A stretch of DNA of 64,000 nucleotides from Nitrospirota bacterium (lineage in GTDB: Bacteria; Nitrospirota; Thermodesulfovibrionia; Thermodesulfovibrionales; UBA6898): NCBI GenBank assembly GCA_040753635.1, contig JBFMDL010000001.1:3714-67713 (forward strand), written 5' to 3'. The translations under genes were made by a program, and so were the position numbers. Positions 2,784-58,550 of this stretch are shown here, in pieces (within the stretch, counting starts at the first letter, position 1; the number at the start of each line of letters is the position of its first letter). A model generated the notes under the pieces. The model made no database searches and was not told where the DNA came from. It was given only the letters and a program-made list of their open reading frames with translations.

Positions 2784-3314
2784 TTAAGTCAATTCCTCTA
2801 TAGTTATGTTTTCGTTTGTATAAATACAGATATCAGAGGCGATCTTCATGGCTTTCTCTATTATATCTGTCGCACTCATATCAGTGTTTTCATACAGAGC
2901 CCTTGCCGCTGCCTGTGCATAAGGCCCTCCCGATCCAATTGCTGCAATGCCCTGCTCGGGTTCAATCACATCACCGTTCCCGGATATTATGAATGTATGC
3001 TCTTTATCGGCAATTATCAGAAGGGCTTCGAGCTTGCGGAGAATCCTGTCGGTCCTCCAGTCCTTTGCAAGTTCAACCGCAGCCCTTGTTATATTGCCCC
3101 TGTAAGATTCCAGTTTTCCTTCGAATCTTTCGAACAACGTGAAAGCATCTGCTGTAGCGCCCGAAAAACCGGCTATGACTTTATCTCCATACATTTTTCT
3201 TATTTTTTTAGCATTCTGTTTGAGTACGGTATTACCCATGGTAACCTGGCCGTCGCCGCCGATGGAAACCATGTCATTACGCCTTACACACAGTATGGTT
3301 GTTGCATGAAACAT
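2784..3314 (-). CDS. hslV: ATP-dependent protease peptidase subunit HslV
   Basis: N-terminal TTILCVRR...GGDGQVT and GSGG motifs typical of HslV, at 176 aa. The stop lies 1 nt before the hslU start. Confidence 0.95.
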
Positions 3315-3377
3315 CGCCGCTCCTTTTTTGTTTATTTTATATCTTACAGGAAACCTGCGCTGTCTGTCATTACTTTA

Positions 3378-3397
3378 TGCGATTTAATGCGATTTAA
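3378..3397. repeat. Perfect tandem direct repeat, TGCGATTTAA x2
   Basis: Read directly from the sequence: 3378-3387 equals 3388-3397. It lies 64-83 nt upstream of the hslV start codon on the minus strand. Confidence 0.8.
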
Positions 3398-3413
3398 ACT
3401 TCTGCTTATGCAG

Positions 3414-3587
3414 GGATTATCCAAATCCACCATCAACTTTGCGAGGGAACGCATTCGAACGGTTTCAGCGGGCCGTTTTGCCTCACCATCCAGGTGAGGC
3501 GGCCCGGTGCACCGGAGCGAAGCGGGAATGAGAGAGAATGACGTTCTCTCGCCTATGGCGCTTTTTTGATGGCGGATTTGGGATTAT
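3414..3587. repeat. MITE-like element (~160 bp) with 14-bp terminal inverted repeats and a flanking 7-bp direct repeat
   Basis: The TIRs are CAAATCCACCATCA (3422-3435) and TGATGGCGGATTTG (3567-3580), complementary at 13 of 14 positions. GGATTAT is present at 3414-3420 and 3581-3587. Internal hairpins include GGGCCG..GCCTCAC/GTGAGGC..CGGCCC and GAGAGAA/TTCTCTC. The 30-nt core at 3513-3542 recurs at 9822-9850. Confidence 0.6.
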
Positions 3588-5979: not shown

Positions 5980-6153
5980 AAGAAGGCGGGATGTCGAGGA
6001 AACAGAATAACGACACCCTGAAAATCAATCCACAAACAATTACGAAATAACACAAATACAGAGTTATCGTTAATGCGTTTATTTAACAAAGTCGGGGTCT
6101 GACATTTAATAATCATGTCGATTTATTCTGTTTTCGAGGCATTCCGCCTTCTG
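5980..6153 (+). repeat. Long imperfect inverted repeat / hairpin element (~174 nt); candidate structured RNA or MITE
   Basis: Positions 5981-6010 pair with 6123-6152 over 30 positions: 25 Watson-Crick, 3 G-T and 2 mismatches. CGAC (6011-6014) pairs with GTCG (6117-6120). All three G-T pairs are G-U compatible only on the plus strand. Confidence 0.6.
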
Positions 6154-6193
6154 TAAAGTTTTATTCTGGACAAGTATGATTTATTATAACTTA

Positions 6194-6427
6194 CTAAAAA
6201 CTTCCCTTTCTCCTGCATATCGTGGTTATCATCCAGATCGAAACGATGAGGGAGACCCAGAAAACAAATCTCAGGACAGAAGCAATGTTTAAGTTGTCCT
6301 TGTCAATATCTTTCGGACTTATAAAAAAAATGGTGAACTTTTCTCTTAAGGTTCTTCCGGAGTTGCCGAGTATCAATGCCGATACCGCCGCAGACAGGAA
6401 TGGTATCAAAAACAATATCAAAGCCAT
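6194..6427 (-). CDS. Hypothetical small membrane protein (two predicted TM helices)
   Basis: The ORF begins 33 nt downstream of the cusA stop on the same strand. It has a hydrophobic N-terminal segment and a hydrophobic C-terminal segment. I could not see a clear RBS. Confidence 0.3.
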   Translation of the reverse strand: MALILFLIPFLSAAVSALILGNSGRTLREKFTIFFISPKDIDKDNLNIASVLRFVFWVSLIVSIWMITTICRRKGSF

Positions 6428-6459
6428 ACAATAGATTTATAGCAGTTCGTATCATTATG

Positions 6460-9400
6460 TCAATCAATTATTGTTTCTCTGCCTTTAAATTCCCTCCCTC
6501 TCCAGATCATATAAATAGCAGGGTAAATAATCAATTCGAGGATTGTTGAGGTGACAACTCCACCGACCATAGGAGCAGCTATCCTCTTCATTACGTCAGA
6601 GCCCGCTCCATGGCTGAACATAATAGGTATAAGCCCTGCAAGTATAACGCTCACGGTCATGATCTTTGGTCTTATCCTCTTTACGGCTCCATCCATAATA
6701 GCTTCCTTAATGTCCTGCTCCGAGTTCAGTTTCCCTTCCTTTTTCCACTGTTTATATGCAAGCTCAAGATAAAGGAGCATCACAACTCCTGTCTCTGCAT
6801 CAAGACCTGCAAGGGCTATTATACCGACCCACACAGCAATGCTCATGTTGTAGTTAAGCATGTAAAGAAGCCAGAATGAGCCTACCAGGGAAAAAGGTAC
6901 GGCAAGCAGGACTATCATCGTCTTTATAATAGATTTTGTATTGAAGTAAAGCAGGACGAAGATGATAAGAACAGTGAGGGGAATAACAAGTTTCAGCTTT
7001 TCGTGTGTCTTTACAAGATACTCATATTCCCCGCTCCACTGAAGACGATAGCCCTCAGGCAGTTTGACCATGGAATTCACTTTGTTCTTTGCTTCTTCAA
7101 CAAAACCTCCCACATCTCTGCCGGAGAAATCGACAAAAACATAAGCTGTGAGCAGACCCTCTTCACTTTTGATGACTGTTGGGCCTTTTACAATATCTAT
7201 GTCAGCGATCTGCCCGAGGGGCGTCTGCCCCATAACTGCGGGGGCCTGACTTCCTGTCATCGAAGCGCCGGCAGACATACTGACCGGTATAAGTATCCTT
7301 TTGATCTTTTCTATATCATTTCTCAATTCCCTTGCATAGCGAACATTTACCGGATAACGCTCCCTGCCTTCTACAGTAATGGTCAGGTTCATCCCTCCAA
7401 GTGTGCTTGCCACTACTGACTGGACTTCTTCCATTGAAAGACCGTATCGTGCAATCTCATCCCGCCGTGGTTTGATGTCAAGGAAATATCCGGTAGAAAG
7501 CCGTTCGGCATAGGCGCTCCTCGTTCCCGGTATATTCTTTACAGCGCTTTCAACATCGATAGCAACCTTTTCGACCATTTCCAGTTTCGGCCCCATTACC
7601 TTAATGCCGACAGGGGTCCTGATGCCTGTTGCGTTCATGTCGATCCGCGCTTTGATAGGCATGGTGAAAGAATTGGCTACTCCGGGGATAGTGACGGCAT
7701 CGTTCATTTCGTTTTTCAATTGTTCAACGTCCATTCCTTTACGCCATTCAGATTTCGGAAGATCTTTTTTAAAACCTATTGAAAATAGAAATTTATCAAA
7801 CACGGAAGGTTTATTATCCGGCTTGAGGTTGATCACCGTCTCGAACATTTCCACAGGCGCAGGGTCTGTCGCGGTCTCTGCCCGACCTGCCTTGCCGAAG
7901 ACCTGTGAGACCTCGGGTATTGTCTTCAACAACTTATCCTGTATCTGGAGCAGTTTAGCCGATTCTGATACAGACAACGCCGGAACCGTGACAGGCATAT
8001 AAAACAGCGTACCTTCATACAGAGGGGGCATGAACTCCGAGCCGAGTTTTGTGAATGGATAGGCAGTCGCGACCATTATGATTATGGCTATGACAATAAC
8101 AATCCACTTGAACCGCAAGGCGAGCTTTGCAAATGGCTCATAGATTTTGTGGATCACGAGACTTACCGGGTTTTTCTCCTCGGGCCGTATCTTTCCCCTA
8201 ATGAAAAGGGTCATCAGCACAGGAGTCAAAGTAATCGCGAGGAATGATGAAAAGAGCATCGCAAAGGTCTTTGTGTATGCCAAAGGTTTAAAGAGCCTCC
8301 CTGCCTGAGCCTGGAGAGTAAAGACAGGAAGAAATCCGACAGTAATCACGAGGAGTGAAAAAAATAGCGAAGGACCGACTTCTTTTGCAGCCTCTATGAT
8401 GACATCAATCCTCTCTCTTCGTGAACGGTTTGAACTGTTTGAACCGACATCGGCCTCCCACGCTTCAAGCTTCTTATGTGCATTCTCAACCATAATGATC
8501 GAGGCATCGACCATTGCACCGATAGCGATTGCAATGCCCCCAAGGCTCATGATATTCGAGGTAACACCAAGATAATACATACAGATAAAGGAGATTATAA
8601 TTGCTACAGGGAGCGTCAATATCACAACAAGGGCGCTTGGAAGATGGAAAAGGAACACAATACAGACAGCGCTTACCGCGATGGAAAGCTTAACGATCTC
8701 TTCTTTTAAGGTATTTATGGAGCGATGAATAAGATCTGTCCTGTCATAGGTAGCAACAACCTTCACGCCTTCTGGCAAAGAAGGCTGAACATCCTTCTTA
8801 ATCTTTTCCTTAACACGCTCGATTACGTTGAGGACATTCTCGCCAAAGCGGACAACAACAATGCCCCCGGCAACTTCACCCTTTCCATCGAGATCAAGCA
8901 GTCCTCTCCGTATCTCCGGCCCGAGCTGGACTGTTGCGACATCACGCAAAAAAACAGGCGTCCCTGTTCCGTTTGTTCCTACAGCAATGTTTTCCAAATC
9001 CTTTATACTCTTTATATACCCTCTACCCCTCACCATATATTCTGCCTCGGAAAGCTCAAGCACCCTTCCTTCAACCTCTGTGTTGCTCTTCTTTATAGCC
9101 TCCATTATCTTCATCAGGGGTATGTTGAAAGCTGTAATACGGTTCGGATCAATATTTACCTGGTACTGCTTTAGAAAACCACCGACACTTGCAACCTGAG
9201 ACACGCCGGGAACGCTTTCGAGGGCAAGTTTAATGTTCCAGTCCTGCATTGAACGGAGTTGTGAGAGGTCATGACTTTTTGTTTCATCAACAAGGGCATA
9301 GGTAAACCCCCATCCAAGGCTTGTGGCATCAGGACCTAAAACAGGATTAACATCAACAGGGATCTTGCTCTTGACAGATTGAAGGTATTCAAGCACACGG

Positions 9401-9723
9401 CTTCTTGCCCAGTAAATATCTGTTCCTTCATCGAAGATCACATAAATAAACGAACTGCCGAGGAATGAAAATCCTCTTACAGCCTGAACCTTCGGCGCTG
9501 CAAGAAGAGTGGAAGATATCGGATAGGTAATCTGGTCTTCTATAAGGTTCGGACTTCTTCCTGTCCATTCCGTATAGATTATGACCTGTGTGTCGCTTAA
9601 ATCAGGTATAGCATCCAGAGGCGTATTCTTCAGCGACCAGTATCCCCATACACAAAGGAAAATCACCATCAGAAAGATGATGAACCTGTTCCTTGCGCTG
9701 TATTCGATTATTCTGGAAATCAC
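6460..9723 (-). CDS. cusA: Heavy-metal efflux RND transporter permease, CusA/CzcA family
   Basis: The protein is 1087 aa with a multi-TM RND architecture (N-terminus MISRIIEYSARNRFIIFLMV..). It lies in an operon with a membrane fusion protein and a TolC-like outer membrane factor. Confidence 0.85.
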   Translation of the reverse strand: MISRIIEYSARNRFIIFLMVIFLCVWGYWSLKNTPLDAIPDLSDTQVIIYTEWTGRSPNLIEDQITYPISSTLLAAPKVQAVRGFSFLGSSFIYVIFDEGTDIYWARSRVLEYLQSVKSKIPVDVNPVLGPDATSLGWGFTYALVDETKSHDLSQLRSMQDWNIKLALESVPGVSQVASVGGFLKQYQVNIDPNRITAFNIPLMKIMEAIKKSNTEVEGRVLELSEAEYMVRGRGYIKSIKDLENIAVGTNGTGTPVFLRDVATVQLGPEIRRGLLDLDGKGEVAGGIVVVRFGENVLNVIERVKEKIKKDVQPSLPEGVKVVATYDRTDLIHRSINTLKEEIVKLSIAVSAVCIVFLFHLPSALVVILTLPVAIIISFICMYYLGVTSNIMSLGGIAIAIGAMVDASIIMVENAHKKLEAWEADVGSNSSNRSRRERIDVIIEAAKEVGPSLFFSLLVITVGFLPVFTLQAQAGRLFKPLAYTKTFAMLFSSFLAITLTPVLMTLFIRGKIRPEEKNPVSLVIHKIYEPFAKLALRFKWIVIVIAIIIMVATAYPFTKLGSEFMPPLYEGTLFYMPVTVPALSVSESAKLLQIQDKLLKTIPEVSQVFGKAGRAETATDPAPVEMFETVINLKPDNKPSVFDKFLFSIGFKKDLPKSEWRKGMDVEQLKNEMNDAVTIPGVANSFTMPIKARIDMNATGIRTPVGIKVMGPKLEMVEKVAIDVESAVKNIPGTRSAYAERLSTGYFLDIKPRRDEIARYGLSMEEVQSVVASTLGGMNLTITVEGRERYPVNVRYARELRNDIEKIKRILIPVSMSAGASMTGSQAPAVMGQTPLGQIADIDIVKGPTVIKSEEGLLTAYVFVDFSGRDVGGFVEEAKNKVNSMVKLPEGYRLQWSGEYEYLVKTHEKLKLVIPLTVLIIFVLLYFNTKSIIKTMIVLLAVPFSLVGSFWLLYMLNYNMSIAVWVGIIALAGLDAETGVVMLLYLELAYKQWKKEGKLNSEQDIKEAIMDGAVKRIRPKIMTVSVILAGLIPIMFSHGAGSDVMKRIAAPMVGGVVTSTILELIIYPAIYMIWRGREFKGRETIID

Positions 9724-9805
9724 GCGCGTTCCACAGGATTAAAGCAGGATATGGTATTTGAGCGGCTTATTTTGCCGATATACAGTAGAAAATAATTTAT
9801 AAAAT

Positions 9806-9891
9806 AAAGAGGCAAAATCCTCGGAGCGAAGCGAGAATGAGCGAAAATACTATATGCCGCTTTTTTAAAATATCCCATGAAATCCTCTTTA
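9806..9891. repeat. Short repeat element inserted between cusB and cusA; shares a 30-nt core with the element at 3414-3587
   Basis: The core CGGAGCGAAGCGAGAATGAGCGAAAATAC (9822-9850) matches 3513-3542 at about 26 of 30 positions. It is followed by GCCGCTTTTTT. The element is bounded by TAAAGAGG (9806-9813) and CCTCTTTA (9884-9891). Confidence 0.55.
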
Positions 9892-9901
9892 ATCAATCAT
9901 A

Positions 9902-11113
9902 TCAGTGTTTATGCCCGCCGAGGGGCGTCACATTCTTCAACTGCGCCTCGGAGTCTATAAGGAAGGTTGCTGATGAGGCTACTTTTTCACCTGCCTTCAG
10001 TCCCATTATTACCTCCCTGAAACCCTCGCCTCTTACCCCGAGCATCACTTCCCTCGGCTCGAAATATCCGTCGCCTTTGTCGACATAAACGATCTGCCTC
10101 GTTCCCGTATCTATAACCGCATCGTCAGGTATCGAAAGCTTTTTACCTATAGGGATTTTCACTTCAACGTTCGTAAACATCTGGGGCTTAAGCTGCCCGC
10201 CGGGATTTGGGATAGTGAACCTAATCTTTGCGGTCCTTGTATCACCTGAAAGGGAAGGATACACATAGTCTATTTTCGATGAGAATTCCCTGCCGGGAAA
10301 ATAACTGAGGCTTATAGCCGCAGTCTGTCCCAATCTGATCAACGGCAGTTCATATTCATAAATATCGGAAATGATCCACACGGATGAGAGGTCCGCAATA
10401 TCGAAAAGCTTTTCTCCGGGCATAACCTTCATCCCCTGCAGGGCCATTTTCTGGACAACATAGCCGCTCACAGGACTATATATCGTGAGCGTCCTTTCGG
10501 GCATTCCTGTCTCTTCCATCTTTTTTATCTGAGCATCCGTTATGTCCCAGAGCCTCAGTCTCTGCTTTGCGGCCTCTACTAATGCCTCTGCATCCTTTGA
10601 AAGCATTTCCGACTGTTTTGAGCTAAGACGCCACTTTAACACGTTAAGAAATTCCTGCTGAGTTGCAACAAGCTCCGGGCTGTAAATCTCTGCCAGCGGT
10701 TCTCCTTTTTTTACGTGCTTTCCCGTATAGTCGACGTAGAGCTTTTCTACCCAGCACTCGAACTTTGTATTTACTGTCGCAAGCCTCCTCTCATCGTATT
10801 CGATCCTGCCTACAGTCCTTATAATCTTCTGGAGCGGCTTTACAGAAACCTCAACTGTCTTAACTCCTATTAACTGTTGTTTTTCAACAGGTATTTCGAC
10901 TGTGGGAGCCTCTTCCTCGGTCTGTTCCTGTGCATTTTCAGGTTGAGCCTGAGTCTGCTGCCCATCTGCCTCATGTCCCTCATGCACAGAAGTCCCTGTC
11001 TTAGGAGTCCCGGATATTTCAGCCTTTGCTAAAATTCCTGTTTTTGAAAAATAAATCGCAAGCCCTGCAACCAGGATTAAGCCGATGATAATTATAATGT
11101 TTCTTTTTTTCAT
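9902..11113 (-). CDS. cusB: Efflux RND periplasmic adaptor (membrane fusion protein), CusB-like
   Basis: It has an N-terminal TM anchor and the HlyD/MFP barrel-sandwich pattern (..AEIYSPELVATQQEF..). There is a 4-nt overlap with the upstream OMF gene. Confidence 0.8.
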   Translation of the reverse strand: MKKRNIIIIIGLILVAGLAIYFSKTGILAKAEISGTPKTGTSVHEGHEADGQQTQAQPENAQEQTEEEAPTVEIPVEKQQLIGVKTVEVSVKPLQKIIRTVGRIEYDERRLATVNTKFECWVEKLYVDYTGKHVKKGEPLAEIYSPELVATQQEFLNVLKWRLSSKQSEMLSKDAEALVEAAKQRLRLWDITDAQIKKMEETGMPERTLTIYSPVSGYVVQKMALQGMKVMPGEKLFDIADLSSVWIISDIYEYELPLIRLGQTAAISLSYFPGREFSSKIDYVYPSLSGDTRTAKIRFTIPNPGGQLKPQMFTNVEVKIPIGKKLSIPDDAVIDTGTRQIVYVDKGDGYFEPREVMLGVRGEGFREVIMGLKAGEKVASSATFLIDSEAQLKNVTPLGGHKH

Positions 11114-12477
11114 TTCTTCTCCCCGCCGGGCGCTGCCGGCTGGACGCCGGCATATGATATCGCCTCAATTCTTCCTATTGCCTTCTCCCTTTCAGAGAAC
11201 TGTCCCCAGTATAAAAGCTCAAAATCAATGACGGACTTCAATCTCGTTATGACCGTTATCGCCTCTACCTTTCCTGTAATATAACCGGAAAGCGCCGATT
11301 CAAAATCCTGATAGGCTTTTGGTATAAGGCTCTCTTTATATAACTCCATCAGCCTCTCAGAGGTCCTTACCATGGAATAATTTTCCCTCAGGCTCGAGGC
11401 CAGCATGAACCTTGCCGCTTCAAGCTCATGCCTTGCCTCCGACAGAGAGGACTCCGCCTCGAGAACAGCCATCTTCTGCTTTGTTTTGTAAAAAAGCGGT
11501 ATATTTATTGTCGTGGTGAGGCTCCACATGTCCTCGAACTCCCCGCTTCTTTTGAAGAGGCTCGCCGCAAGCGTAAAATCGGGATAGTATTCTTTTTCGG
11601 CCATCTTAACTCTTGCCTCCGAGGCCTTAACCATCTTTTCCTTCACCTGTAGCAGGGGAGAATTCTCCTGAGCGCTCCGGAGGAGATCGTCCATCGTCAT
11701 GGTGTATGGTATGAATACAGGCTCTATGGGCCTGCCGAGAGGCGAGTTCACCTCACGGCCTGCTGTCGTATTAAGCATCGCCTCAAGAGACTGGAGTCTC
11801 TGCTTTAACATTTCGTCTTTTTCGATGAGCATATACTTCTCTGTCTGGGCCATTATAACTTCCTGCTGGGGCGCCATACCCGAGGAGTATCTTGCGAGCG
11901 CCGCATCCTCTATCCTTGAAAAGAGCTCTGTCTTTTCCGTTATGAGTTCGATATTCTTGTGTGTAAGGTAAAGGTCATAGTAGAGTTCTTTTATCCTTGA
12001 CACCAATACGAGCCTTGAATAGTCATGCTGCGCCTTGAGACCCTCTGCATCCCATGACGCCATCTCTCCTTTTAACGAGAGTTTCCCGGGAAAAGGGAAC
12101 ATCTGGGATGCGCTGAACATCCACTGCGCGCCCTCCATCTCGCCGTACGTATACCTTTTATATCCCTCATTCTGGTACCCGAACATGAACATAGGGTCAG
12201 GAAGGCTCTTTGCCTGCGGGATCTTGTATCTTGAGGTCTCAACTTTCAGACCAGAGATGATCAGATCGTGGTTGTTCCTGAGCGCCTCGTCAATAAGGTC
12301 CTGAAGCCTGAGATCTTCGGCGTGAAGGAAAGAAGCAGAAAGTAAGCAGTAGGCAGTAAGGAGTAAATAAACCAAAGAGCGGTTGCCGGAAAGACGCGGC
12401 AGAAGAGCCTTGAACCGGGAAAAAGGTCTTTTATTCCTCTCTACTGCCTTCTGCCTGCTGCCGGATGAAGTCTTCAC
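11110..12477 (-). CDS. cusC: TolC-family outer membrane efflux protein (CusC-like)
   Basis: Signal peptide ..LLLTAYCLLSASFLHAEDL followed by an OEP repeat architecture. I placed the start at the in-frame GTG at 12477, immediately after the TGA of the preceding gene. The longest ORF (to 12552) would overlap that gene by 73 nt. The start is uncertain. Confidence 0.75.
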   Translation of the reverse strand: MKTSSGSRQKAVERNKRPFSRFKALLPRLSGNRSLVYLLLTAYCLLSASFLHAEDLRLQDLIDEALRNNHDLIISGLKVETSRYKIPQAKSLPDPMFMFGYQNEGYKRYTYGEMEGAQWMFSASQMFPFPGKLSLKGEMASWDAEGLKAQHDYSRLVLVSRIKELYYDLYLTHKNIELITEKTELFSRIEDAALARYSSGMAPQQEVIMAQTEKYMLIEKDEMLKQRLQSLEAMLNTTAGREVNSPLGRPIEPVFIPYTMTMDDLLRSAQENSPLLQVKEKMVKASEARVKMAEKEYYPDFTLAASLFKRSGEFEDMWSLTTTINIPLFYKTKQKMAVLEAESSLSEARHELEAARFMLASSLRENYSMVRTSERLMELYKESLIPKAYQDFESALSGYITGKVEAITVITRLKSVIDFELLYWGQFSEREKAIGRIEAISYAGVQPAAPGGEKK

Positions 12478-12479
12478 AC

Positions 12480-12869
12480 TCAGTGCGCGTCGACGTTGAA
12501 CCTCAAAGAGGACGTCTTCCCGCCTTTTGTAATCTTTACGGCAATATTCCACGCACCCGACATTGAAAGGTTCATCCTTGCCTTGTATTTATCGCCTTTG
12601 AGCGCTGCGTCAGTCTTGTAATTCATAGCCGGCATGCCAGGCATTGCTGGCATCGAATAATCGACCTTCACTATAGCGTCGGTCACGTATTTACCGGACG
12701 GGTCTTTGATTTCGATCGCGATATTATTATCGCCCACTACAGGAGGATTTTTGTCTATCTTCACCTCCACGTCGTATTCTCCGGCCTTTTTCTTCACCTC
12801 GTAGTCCCTTGCATAGGCGAGGCCTGCAACTAAAAGTAAAATCAGTATAAATACTGTAAGTTTTTTCAT
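12480..12869 (-). CDS. Secreted Met-rich protein, FixH/YtkA-like fold (putative periplasmic Cu(I)-binding component)
   Basis: Signal peptide MKKLTVFILILLLVAGLAYA. Met-rich motif SMPAMPGMPAM. Beta-rich, about 110-aa mature domain. An AAGGAG RBS is present. It lies in the cus operon. Confidence 0.55.
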   Translation of the reverse strand: MKKLTVFILILLLVAGLAYARDYEVKKKAGEYDVEVKIDKNPPVVGDNNIAIEIKDPSGKYVTDAIVKVDYSMPAMPGMPAMNYKTDAALKGDKYKARMNLSMSGAWNIAVKITKGGKTSSLRFNVDAH

Positions 12870-12880
12870 ATCGAATCTCC

Positions 12881-13288
12881 TTATCTTTTATATTCTTTTT
12901 CAACGGTGTCCCGTATCTGTTTTACGGGATATCCTTTTTTGTAAAGTTCGAAAGCCCTAAGGGCCTCCCCTAAACAAATATCTCACATGGAAGCATGGTT
13001 GTCAACATAGCAACTCAATAAACTTTTATGCCTGAAGGCGGGGGACTCTTCGCATTTGCAATAACAGTAAATACTGTCAAGAACCCGGGGGATCTCTTTT
13101 GCCGTATGATAAGCTTTTCTTACATAAGACTCACCGAACATATCAGGATTAAGCGTAGCATTAGTCTCGCCTCTCCTTAGTGACCGGTCATGCCTGCCCG
13201 AAAGACTTTTTTGAGCCCCTTCTGCAGCAAATGCAAAAAGCATCAGCGGGATTATTATCCCGATAATCGTTGATCCCGGCATTTTCAC
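12881..13288 (-). CDS. CYCXC/PCYCGC-motif family protein, probable selenoprotein (in-frame UGA at 12983-12985 read as Sec)
   Basis: GTG start with a GGAGG RBS, a signal peptide and a CYCKC motif. The ORF track stops at TGA, but the frame continues for 33 codons (DICLGEALRAFELYKKGYPVKQIRDTVEKEYKR) to a TAA that sits inside the RBS of the next gene. Readthrough would create a U-D-I-C motif. A hairpin lies 15 nt downstream of the UGA. Confidence 0.6.
12950..12968 (-). promoter_or_regulatory. Candidate SECIS-like hairpin downstream of the in-frame UGA
   Basis: The minus-strand RNA GGAGGCCC-UUA-GGGCUUUC forms an 8-bp stem including G-U pairs. It starts 15 nt after the UGA at 12985-12983. Confidence 0.35.
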
Positions 13289-13378
13289 GCTCTCACCTCC
13301 TCAGAAATTTTATCATTCATTTACAACTGTACAAAAAGATTATGAAGAAATTTTGAAACGTGAAAAAATATAAATAAA

Positions 13379-13408
13379 TTGAATAAAAATCAGGCAATGC
13401 ACTATAAT
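13379..13408 (+). promoter_or_regulatory. Putative sigma70 promoter of the PilZ gene (TTGAAT-N18-TATAAT)
   Basis: -35 box at 13379-13384 and -10 box at 13403-13408. The ATG at 13417 is only 8 nt past the -10 box, and no SD sequence is visible. Confidence 0.35.
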
Positions 13409-13416
13409 ATTTTGTT

Positions 13417-13956
13417 ATGCATGATGAATTTGAGGATTTCAAGAAAGATTTCCTGAGTAAGGACGCCAAAGAGCCGGTTCAAAGAAAAAAATTCCAGTGC
13501 CCTCATTGCAAAGGGATCCTCGTTGAGGCATACATAGAACAAAATCCCTTCCCCGAGATCCCGTGTCCTTCCTGCGGCTCGATGCTGGATACTTCTTCAA
13601 TTGAAGAAGTTGCGATGCCTTCCAAAGACACGAGAGCCGACAAGAGATGTGAAATGTCTCTGAAGGTCTCTTATACAAGTTACAATGAGTTCATAACTGA
13701 ATATACAAAAAACGTAAGCCGCGGCGGCATGTTTATAAATACAAGGCGCAAACACGAAGTTGGAGAAAATGTAGACTTATTCCTTTATGTGCCCGGCCTT
13801 GACGAACCTTTGAGAGTGGGGGCAATGGTAGTGCATATTAATTTTCATAATGTAAAGGATGAAGACGCAGGGATAGGAGTTAAATTTGTAGATATCGACA
13901 ATTCAAGCAGGCATCTCCTGATAAATTTCATAAAATCCCGGGAAGAACGTCTGTAG
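13417..13956 (+). CDS. Zinc-ribbon plus PilZ domain protein
   Basis: The N-terminus has CPHCKG...CPSCGS. The C-terminal PilZ-like region reads RADKRCEM..., NVSRGGMFI and GIGVKFVDID. Confidence 0.75.
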   Translation: MHDEFEDFKKDFLSKDAKEPVQRKKFQCPHCKGILVEAYIEQNPFPEIPCPSCGSMLDTSSIEEVAMPSKDTRADKRCEMSLKVSYTSYNEFITEYTKNVSRGGMFINTRRKHEVGENVDLFLYVPGLDEPLRVGAMVVHINFHNVKDEDAGIGVKFVDIDNSSRHLLINFIKSREERL

Positions 13957-30011: not shown

Positions 30012-30204
30012 AAATGCTGTATTGGGCAGCTACCTGCCCTGTTTGTGATATATGAAAAAGTTGATCCGGCAAATTAGATCTTTTGGGAGCCTGCGTAAGT
30101 CGTTGGTGTGCATGTTGCCAATAAGGCAAAAGCCTGAAAACCTCTTCAAGGCACCCACCTATAAAATAGGCGGATCTAATCTTTCATGTACACGGCAGGG
30201 CGGG
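30012..30204 (+). ncRNA. Candidate structured RNA or long structured 5' leader of rarA (class unknown; rod-like, 6S-like shape)
   Basis: A long imperfect closing stem pairs 30037-30070 with 30169-30200 (for example ATGAAA/TTTCAT and GATCCG/CGGATC), and its wobble pairs are G-U compatible on the plus strand only. Internal hairpins are TTGCC-AATAA-GGCAA and GCCTGAA/TTCAAGGC. No plausible coding signal is present. Confidence 0.3.
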
Positions 30205-30406
30205 ATTAATATAACTCTATTAAGGCTGGTGTCTATGGTTTTTATTTTTTTGGGGGAGAAATTTAAAAGAAATACAACAAAAAAGACAATTGAGTCTGAT
30301 CTCTCAGGCTTTTGTATAGATTTCTGTAATAACATTGCTTTTTATAATAAAACTTTTTCACCTCCAAAAGCCTTATTCAAACCATAGTCCGGCCCGGGAC
30401 TAAATA

Positions 30407-57413: not shown

Positions 57414-58550
57414 ATGATATACCTCGACAATAATGCAACGACGCCTGTTGACCCCGAAGTTTATGATGCGGTGTTTTCATGCCTCAAACGCGATTTCGGC
57501 AATCCTTCAAGCAGCCATCTTCTGGGCCGGAAGGCAAAGGAATTTATAGAATCTTCGCGAGCATCTATTGCAGAATTTCTTGGATGTACCCATGAAGAAA
57601 TCTGTTTTACATCCGGCGGCACCGAATCAAACAATCTCGCAATATTAGGTTCCAGCCTTCTTCACCGCAGCGGGCATATTATAACATCTTCGATTGAGCA
57701 TCCGTCGGTAATCAACACATGCCGGCATCTCGAGTCACTCGGTTTTGATATCACCTTTGCACCGGTGGACAACGATGGAATTGTCAGATTAGATAAAATC
57801 AGAGAAGCTGTCAGAAAGAATACGTTTCTGATATCCGTAATGCATTCAAACAATGAAACAGGGGTTATTCAACCCATCAAGGAAATTGGAGCGCTTGCGA
57901 GAGAGAACAATATCGCATTCCATGTTGATTCTGCTCAATCCATAGGCAAAATGCATTTCAGCCTTAATGATCTGAAAATAGATCTAATGACTATAGTTTC
58001 TCATAAATTCTATGGGCCAAAAGGCGTCGGCGCCCTTTTTATCAGAAAAGGGATAAATCTAAAGCCAATTTTTTACGGAGCCTGCCATGAAATGGGGATA
58101 AGGCCCGGAACCGAAAACGTCCCCGGCATAATAGGTCTTGGCAAGGCGTGTGAGATAGCGCAGAGGGATCTGGAGCTAAGGGTCTCACATACTACCGGTC
58201 TGAGGGATCTGCTTTTTAATAACCTGAAGACCCATATCCCGGATATTAAACTCAATGGTCACCCGACAAAAAGACTTCCGAACACTCTTAATATATGTCT
58301 ACCGGGGATATCCTCGCTTGCTCTTATAGAAAAAATTAAGAACCATGTTGCGGTTTCGTCCGGTTCTGCTTGCAACTCCGGTAAACAGACGCCATCAAAT
58401 GTTCTGAAAAATATGGGGCTTTCTGATGAGGAAGCATTATCGTCCATCAGACTCAGTGTTGGCAAAGATAATACAGAAGCAGAAATAAACGAAGCTTCCG
58501 AGATAATCGCGCAATCGGTTTTTTCCATGAAAAAAGCGCCTGTCAGATAA
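57414..58550 (+). CDS. Cysteine desulfurase (NifS/IscS family)
   Basis: YLDNNATT, the PLP lysine context SHKFYGPKG, and the active-site loop SSGSAC. Confidence 0.9.
   Translation: MIYLDNNATTPVDPEVYDAVFSCLKRDFGNPSSSHLLGRKAKEFIESSRASIAEFLGCTHEEICFTSGGTESNNLAILGSSLLHRSGHIITSSIEHPSVINTCRHLESLGFDITFAPVDNDGIVRLDKIREAVRKNTFLISVMHSNNETGVIQPIKEIGALARENNIAFHVDSAQSIGKMHFSLNDLKIDLMTIVSHKFYGPKGVGALFIRKGINLKPIFYGACHEMGIRPGTENVPGIIGLGKACEIAQRDLELRVSHTTGLRDLLFNNLKTHIPDIKLNGHPTKRLPNTLNICLPGISSLALIEKIKNHVAVSSGSACNSGKQTPSNVLKNMGLSDEEALSSIRLSVGKDNTEAEINEASEIIAQSVFSMKKAPVR

Follow-up and report, generated by a model that had tools for sequence, protein, structure and literature searches.

We analyzed 64,000 nucleotides (nt) of DNA from a Nitrospirota bacterium (contig JBFMDL010000001.1; this whole stretch is referred to as the window) and found that positions 13288–12881 on its minus strand very probably form a single gene, encoding a 135-residue selenoprotein of the CYCXC/OS_HP4 family (NF041379, PF13798). 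Judging from comparative sequence evidence, the in-frame UGA codon at 12985–12983 is almost certainly decoded as selenocysteine (Sec). The original prediction, made from the sequence of the window, had proposed this recoding and, as its consequence, a U-D-I-C (UxxC) motif downstream of a CYCKC motif. Both proposals are now strongly supported by the match to the family hidden Markov model (HMM), a Cys/Sec pair in the alignment with homologues, conservation of the TGA in relatives, selection on the downstream codons and a conserved hairpin.

Evidence for translation beyond the in-frame UGA

The selenoprotein open reading frame (ORF) starts with a GTG at 13288, with a GGAGG sequence at 13300–13296, 7 nt 5' of the GTG, and as listed it terminates with ...SCYVDNHASM at the TGA at 12985–12983. 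Past this TGA, the frame stays open for 33 codons, reading DICLGEALRAFELYKKGYPVKQIRDTVEKEYKR, up to a TAA (12883–12881) that overlaps the AAGGAG preceding the ATG (12869) of the next gene, which encodes a YtkA-like protein. Without read-through, 113 nt between the two genes would be non-coding. The TGA, the 33-codon extension, the TAA within the AAGGAG and the 113-nt gap had all been placed correctly in the original prediction. An open frame of this length is by itself not rare, as 32% of random 33-codon windows in the 64-kb sequence are stop-free; its significance therefore comes from comparative evidence.

Among 5.8 billion proteins searched, 366 relatives were recovered. Nearly all of the best 120, on which lengths were judged, comprise about 101 residues and share the same end, ...H-A-[AS]-[MV]. 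One relative, P0002 (136 residues), carries Trp at the Sec site; the underlying DNA (locus L001, 566–976) has a TGA there, and the Trp appears in the entry because the contig was gene-called under genetic code 4. All 17 related loci, drawn from Nitrospirota/Thermodesulfovibrionales assemblies and a metagenome contig, have TGA at this codon. The tails after the conserved TGA are highly conserved and of the type DICLGEALRAFELYKKGY...; they are exactly 33 codons long in 16 of these loci and 32 codons long in one, with TAA, TAG or TGA as the stop. Two distant Sec forms (L031 and L033) show the same arrangement of TGA and tail, and a third distant locus (L030) keeps the TGA in what is a degenerate copy. 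Thus, 20 independently assembled relatives, 53–97% identical to the window protein, bear the TGA.

In the degenerate L030 copy (6001–6450), CYCXC is replaced by CYCRR and the C-terminal tail is interrupted by an additional in-frame stop, features that may reflect gene decay or poor assembly. Synteny at this locus is as in the window, with RecO, DksA and PilZ on one side, followed by CYCXC and YtkA.

We compared nonsynonymous with synonymous variation (pN/pS) in 17 sequences (the window and L001–L016; L017 was left out, its upstream part being frameshifted). The ratio was 0.159 for the 33 codons 3' of the UGA, 0.095 for the 33 codons 5' of it and 1.02 in the same frame beyond the real stop, and the substitutions 3' of the UGA were concentrated at third codon positions. 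This pattern indicates that the 33 codons after the UGA are under purifying selection as coding sequence.

More distant homologues show what the UGA stands for. HMMER, run exhaustively against 1.84 billion cluster representatives, yielded 893 relatives; of the top 150, for which lengths were judged, about 11 stop at the Sec column and can be regarded as further candidate Sec forms, while the rest are full length. In alignments of 49 and of 100 full-length homologues, the UGA column and the column three residues further on are both nearly invariant Cys, which answers the question, raised with the original prediction, of whether Cys or Sec aligns at the UGA. In the same alignments, C77, C79, C93 and H98 (window numbering) are invariant, and C75 and H87 are nearly so. 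The UxxC of the window protein facing CxxC in its homologues reads as the classic signature of a genuine selenoprotein.

For profile scoring, the UGA residue was entered as Cys. The read-through protein matched the NCBIfam model NF041379 (OS_HP4_CYCXC, CYCXC family (seleno)protein) with 121.1 bits over model positions 2–90 of 90, while the 101-residue truncated form scored 75.3 bits over model positions 2–56, below the curated equivalog cut-off of 90 bits. With Pfam PF13798 (PCYCGC; gathering threshold 25 bits), the read-through protein scored 43.4 bits and the truncated form 24.8 bits, just under the threshold. The last 33 residues thus align with the family model to its final position, and the family name that the original prediction had given was the right one. 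Both family hallmarks are present, namely C75-Y-C77-K-C79, and U102-D-I-C105 followed by the conserved C-terminal segment.

OS_HP4 is the name that the NF041379 family received in the Global Ocean Sampling selenoprotein survey. The OS_HP4/CYCXC family protein, a hypothetical protein with PF13798 and UxxC, is counted among the known selenoprotein families (PMC9312934), and it also figures, with the same domain and motif, in the prokaryotic selenoprotein family list of PMC13188914. As both the family and the recoding are already catalogued, the window gene is a new member and not a new family, and the recoding event itself is not new. With the NF041379/OS_HP4 family it shares the CYCXC motif, the UxxC at the Sec position and the conserved C-terminal helix, and there is no structural difference. 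However, while the reviews list this family without function or genomic context, the window member heads a YtkA-CusCBA operon, a linkage that is kept in Nitrospirota relatives.

A conserved hairpin and other readings of the UGA

In standard bacterial Sec insertion, SelB carrying Sec-tRNA(Sec) is recruited by a hairpin. RNAalifold, applied to 18 aligned Sec-form sequences (the window and 17 relatives), independently predicted the hairpin at 12968–12950 that the original prediction had pointed out. The UGA is followed by its stem after 14 nt and by its loop after 22 nt. The hairpin is kept in 18 of 18 sequences, with 98.6% of cells paired; in controls with a slid register, the paired share fell to 23–73%. 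At alignment columns 24/36, four sequences have A:U in place of G:C, both partners having changed at synonymous third codon positions, and at columns 28/32 one sequence has U:A in place of C:G. In addition, a 33-nt stretch around the hairpin folds with −11.7 kcal/mol in the window and with a mean of −13.7 kcal/mol in the Sec forms, in a fixed register, whereas the equivalent stretch of the Cys forms (six independent genes) has a mean of −6.9 kcal/mol and no common register. Being strong and in register only in the Sec forms, the hairpin is not a mere by-product of the amino acid sequence. The single-sequence fold of 66 nt around the UGA is unexceptional compared with shuffles (z = −0.9), so that it is conservation and covariation, and not energy, that support the hairpin.

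The bacterial Sec insertion sequence (SECIS) model, as described in PMC13188914, has a stem of 4–16 bp, a loop of 3–9 nt, a UGA-to-loop distance of 16–37 nt and a minimum free energy of −7.5 kcal/mol or below. The window hairpin conforms to it in stem length (8 bp), loop length (3 nt), spacing (22 nt) and energy (−11.7 kcal/mol). A second stem-loop (UCCCGUA-AAACAGA-UACGGGA, 12905–12933, minus strand), partially conserved by eye, lies in the C-terminal coding part.

Some observations count against Sec decoding at this site. The consensus SECIS model also demands a G in the first two loop positions (PMC13188914), and the UUA loop of the window has none, as is also the case in L006, L013 and L014; such a G is found in 14 of the 18 aligned sequences (loops UGC, UGA, GGA or GUUCG). 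According to the same source, a subset of real bacterial SECIS elements fails the consensus model, and the loop-G rule of the generic model is not a criterion for family membership. No Rfam family fell on the hairpin region, either in the window at gathering thresholds or in 12700–13400 at E values up to 10, where the only matches, to S-element and isrK, were at chance level and on the other strand. The claim of a stem-loop in SECIS position therefore stands as to location, geometry, conservation and covariation, but the loop G is missing and there is no Rfam match. Moreover, tRNA scans of the window and the 17 related loci, together with NCBIfam annotation of the 20 larger window ORFs, detected no tRNA-Sec, selA, selB or selD in the 64-kb window or the fetched loci. 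Because these genes lie in neither, the Sec-decoding capacity of the genome is assumed from the lineage; selC overlapping selB has been reported in Nitrospirae. A NifS/IscS-type cysteine desulfurase encoded at 57414–58550 is not evidence for Sec use.

We suggest that SelB with Sec-tRNA(Sec) would bind the hairpin at 12968–12950, inside the coding sequence, and deliver Sec at 12985–12983, giving a product with the U102-D-I-C105 motif at the N-terminus of its C-terminal helix. If the UGA were instead a true stop, the gene would encode a 101-residue protein and the conservation downstream would reflect a regulatory RNA or spacer. Gene callers do end the ORF at the UGA, most database entries have 101 residues, and a regulatory role for the hairpin is conceivable in principle. 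However, the conservation downstream is of the protein type (pN/pS 0.16, with third-position variation), and the downstream codons align to the C-terminal helices of the Cys homologues and are required for the score to pass the family HMM cut-off. A truncated product would, moreover, be devoid of the conserved CxxC and of two helices of a confidently modelled domain. We therefore consider termination at the UGA highly improbable.

It is just as hard to credit that the UGA is read as Trp or Cys, whether through near-cognate suppression or because an alternative genetic code applies. Such a reading would agree with the Trp at the Sec position of the P0002 entry, but this Trp is a code-4 call of a TGA. 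TGA terminates 22 of the 60 long ORFs in the window and is thus an ordinary stop there; UGA is therefore not reassigned genome-wide, and its recoding must be site-specific. Furthermore, the aligned homologue residue is Cys and never Trp, the SECIS-positioned hairpin is specific to the TGA forms, and the family is curated as a selenoprotein family. A scan of the window for further TGA read-through candidates returned only adjacent same-frame genes or ORFs inside other genes, none of them convincing. Finally, although a single substitution would turn TGC or TGT into TGA, a pseudogene or a sequencing error in a former Cys codon is effectively refuted by the TGA in the 20 independently assembled relatives and by purifying selection on both sides of it.

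Operon context and predicted protein architecture

The genes downstream of the selenoprotein gene are listed in Table 1 together with the features of the gene itself. The RND pump aligned to E. coli CusA with 1052 bits and to the CzcA-like ZneA with 449 bits. Each of its residues that align with CusA M573, M623 and M672, the three-Met Cu(I) metal site of CusA structures, is Met. The pump's motif in transmembrane segment 4 (TM4) is AIGAMVDASIIMVEN. The higher score against CusA and the Met triad bear out the original assignment of a cusCBA-type copper-efflux operon. For the periplasmic adaptor (9902–11113), the CusB and CzcB subfamily models score under their cut-offs. The gene directly downstream of the selenoprotein gene had been described as a Met-rich FixH-like partner; its product is Met-rich, but FixH matched with only 21.9 bits, under the cut-off of 23, and the protein is YtkA-like (PF13115, 71.3 bits). 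The YtkA/CtaK domain has been implicated in extracytoplasmic copper trafficking (PMC13344008).

Table 1. Coordinates of the selenoprotein gene, its features and the downstream copper-efflux genes in the window
Feature	Positions	Strand	Remarks
CYCXC-family selenoprotein gene (very probable)	12881..13288	minus	135 residues, Sec = residue 102, plus TAA stop
Signal peptide or membrane anchor VKMPGSTIIGIIIPLMLFAFAA, AFA|AE-type cleavage site	13223..13288	minus	Putative, from reading the sequence; boundary approximate
C75-Y-C77-K-C79 (CYCXC) motif	13052..13066	minus	Conserved Cys in 100 homologues
In-frame UGA, proposed Sec102 codon	12983..12985	minus	TGA kept in relatives; Cys column in full-length homologues
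Cys105, partner in U-D-I-C (UxxC) motif	12974..12976	minus	Near-invariant Cys; helix N-terminus in P0002 model
SECIS-like hairpin GGAGGCCC-UUA-GGGCUUUC	12950..12968	minus	8-bp stem, 3-nt loop; RNAalifold
33 codons 3' of UGA (C-terminal helical segment) and real TAA	12881..12982	minus	pN/pS 0.159
YtkA-like (CtaK-family) Met-rich exported protein (MPAMPGMPAM)	12480..12869	minus	PF13115, 71.3 bits
Outer-membrane factor (TolC/CusC-like)	11110..12552	minus	Weak TolC, NodT and CusC matches, all below cut-offs
CusB/CzcB-type periplasmic adaptor (membrane fusion protein)	9902..11113	minus	TIGR01730, 114 bits (cut-off 95)
CusA-type heavy-metal RND pump	6460..9723	minus	TIGR00914, 1089 bits

With the listed GTG as its start, the gene for the outer-membrane factor would share 73 nt with the YtkA-like gene; homologues align only from about residue 50–80, and translation probably starts further downstream. 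The adaptor gene is separated from the cusA-like gene by 178 nt of AT-rich sequence (9724–9901, minus strand), while in several relatives the two genes are directly adjacent. The sole ORF in this gap, 58 codons long with a TTG start and no Pfam match, is unconvincing. The stretch linking the selenoprotein gene to the YtkA-like gene contains no terminator on the coding strand according to a terminator/promoter scan, which also gave a promoter-like match within the selenoprotein gene at 13005–12977. Divergent from the selenoprotein gene lies a PilZ-domain gene (13417–13956, plus strand), whose product has zinc-ribbon-like Cys pairs at its N-terminus; this arrangement is common to L001 and L030, and the gene could be a neighbour or regulator linked to cyclic di-GMP. 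Elsewhere in the window, a 6S (SsrS) RNA gene at 30028–30210 (plus strand) matched Rfam RF00013 over its full length with 82 bits.

In 13 of the 17 related loci, a YtkA-like gene lies directly downstream of the Sec gene or one gene further, and genes for the outer-membrane factor, adaptor and RND pump then follow wherever the contig is long enough. L016 has the same operon nearby in divergent orientation, with several YtkA-like paralogues around it. A YHS-domain gene is placed between the selenoprotein and YtkA-like genes in L002 (10407–10727) and L003 (10396–11121), and L009 has a similar YHS-like ORF (2337–2648), for which the CPVSGEKID motif was the sole criterion. The genes that follow the Sec gene in L012 (738–1808 and 2748–4916) encode a pyridine nucleotide-disulfide oxidoreductase fused to YHS and a P1B ATPase of CopA type that has an HMBD domain. 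The association with copper thus survives these rearrangements.

The Cys forms of PF13798, exemplified by Bacillales PCYCGC lipoproteins, have the same domain and the same conserved Cys/His set and are likewise extracytoplasmic, but they carry Cys where the window protein has Sec and often PCYCGC where it has CYCKC. They also differ in their genomic surroundings, where TlpA/CcdA, genes for cytochrome c maturation or an iron-binding protein take the place of Cus pumps. Among the Cys-form loci studied, which come from other lineages, those of L026–L028 adjoin TlpA/ResA-like thioredoxins and CcdA, those of L023–L025 adjoin ResB/CcsA and a Sco/thioredoxin-like gene, and that of L019 adjoins cytochrome c and DsbD_TM genes. 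The neighbours of TlpA/ResA, CcdA, ResB/CcsA and Sco type constitute an extracytoplasmic pathway that keeps metal-binding cysteines reduced. In the L027 operon, a TlpA/thioredoxin-like ORF (2976–3530, plus strand) is split by an in-frame TGA at 3216–3218 (FWLTS-U-TFC) and stands together with the Cys-form PCYCGC protein, another TlpA-like protein and CcdA; the split ORF probably encodes a second UxxC selenoprotein.

Residues 1 to approximately 22 of the window protein probably serve for export or membrane anchoring, since the same region of homologues contains a signal peptide, a lipobox or a signal anchor with a positively charged N-terminus. Together, these features argue that the domain faces outward and would thus be extracytoplasmic. 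For the homologue P0002, which shares 53% identity with the window protein and carries Trp in place of Sec, an AlphaFold2 model based on an alignment of 49 sequences reached a predicted local distance difference test (pLDDT) score of 92.2 and a predicted template modelling (pTM) score of 0.75. The modelled domain is all-helical, with no β-sheet, and the Sec column is located at the N-terminus of a long helix (residues 104–118). Membership among the thioredoxin-fold oxidoreductases was rejected, as the fold is all-helical in this model and there is no thioredoxin-family Pfam match.

Possible roles in extracytoplasmic copper handling

The original prediction had proposed a part in periplasmic Cu(I) handling or redox buffering, for which gene context is the only basis. 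Based on gene context and residue conservation, we suggest a mechanism in which the selenoprotein would be produced as the first member of an operon together with the Met-rich YtkA-like protein and a CusC/CusB/CusA-type Cu(I)/Ag(I) efflux pump. C75, C77, C79, H87, C93, H98, U102 and C105 would jointly form a thiolate/selenolate/imidazole site that binds periplasmic Cu(I), with the exposed UxxC as its exchange or redox-active end. From there, the YtkA-like protein and the Cus pump could receive the copper; alternatively, the site could be kept reduced. We would give a periplasmic Cu(I)-binding function, exerted with the YtkA-like protein and the Cus pump, a chance approaching even. It is also plausible, and we propose it tentatively, that the Sec form is a dedicated extracytoplasmic partner of Cus-type efflux in anaerobic Nitrospirota, whose selenolate/thiolate Cu(I) site captures or reduces copper and passes it on to the YtkA-like chaperone and CusCBA.

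Several results speak against a copper-binding assignment. Synteny conserved within one clade partly reflects shared ancestry, and some Cys forms have no metal-related neighbours (L022, which has no informative neighbours). A profile search of PDB sequences gave no match at E values up to 1, and the best Foldseek hit in the PDB, the N-terminal domain of CcmH, had a non-significant E value of 1.1; these searches revealed neither a solved relative, by sequence or fold, nor a characterised homologue, so that function cannot be transferred. In the searchable literature on OS_HP4, CYCXC, PCYCGC and PF13798, we found no function for the family and no description of its linkage to YtkA-CusCBA operons.

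Alternatively, the same selenoprotein might act as a selenylsulfide/thiol oxidoreductase, reducing Cu(II) to Cu(I) for the Cus pump or repairing or reducing copper-oxidised periplasmic proteins, with the remaining Cys and His residues being structural. The UxxC at a helix N-terminus in the P0002 model is a classic redox-active arrangement, the Cys forms adjoin TlpA/ResA-like thioredoxins, CcdA and cytochrome c maturation genes, and L012 couples the Sec gene with the YHS-fused pyridine nucleotide-disulfide oxidoreductase. With eight conserved residues of ligand type, two of them His that are invariant or nearly so, the protein nevertheless has more than a simple CxxC redox protein would need, and the Nitrospirota operons contain no gene for a partner reductase. 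Likewise, while the best fold match is to the helical CxxC oxidoreductase domain of CcmH, that match is at chance level, and the model does not show a thioredoxin fold. We regard a purely redox role as less probable than Cu(I) binding, but as its main rival.

A Cu(I)-binding role would have a parallel in CusF of the E. coli CusCFBA system, a periplasmic Cu(I)/Ag(I) chaperone with a β-barrel fold and Met/His/Trp ligands. Like CusF, the window protein is a small exported accessory encoded with a CusCBA-type pump, and its proposed role in feeding Cu(I) would be analogous. However, there is no relationship between the two in sequence or fold, as the window protein is all-helical according to the P0002 model and presents Cys, Sec and His. 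The Met-rich YtkA-like neighbour is a closer functional analogue of CusF than the selenoprotein. Sec forms of E1-E2 cation ATPases, MerT and CopZ-like proteins, in which Sec replaces the first Cys of a CxxC, are predicted among proteins linked to heavy-metal resistance (PMC13188914). They share UxxC with the window protein but differ from it in fold and family, and the text consulted reports none of them as an RND-pump partner.

Standard gene callers truncate this gene, so that its correct annotation needs a Sec-aware model; in metagenome protein sets, the family is systematically mis-annotated, with stubs of about 101 residues and one Trp mistranslation. Modestly new is the consistent linkage of the Sec forms to copper-export genes (YtkA, YHS, CopA and CusCBA), which provides a testable lead. 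Taken together, the copper context of the Sec forms and the TlpA/CcdA and cytochrome c maturation context of the Cys forms lead to the testable hypothesis that the family serves in extracytoplasmic copper handling or copper-linked redox handling. If this is true, copper resistance would be partly selenium-dependent, a widespread domain of unknown function (CYCXC/PF13798) would gain its first function, and the window protein would represent a rare exported bacterial selenoprotein tied to metal efflux.

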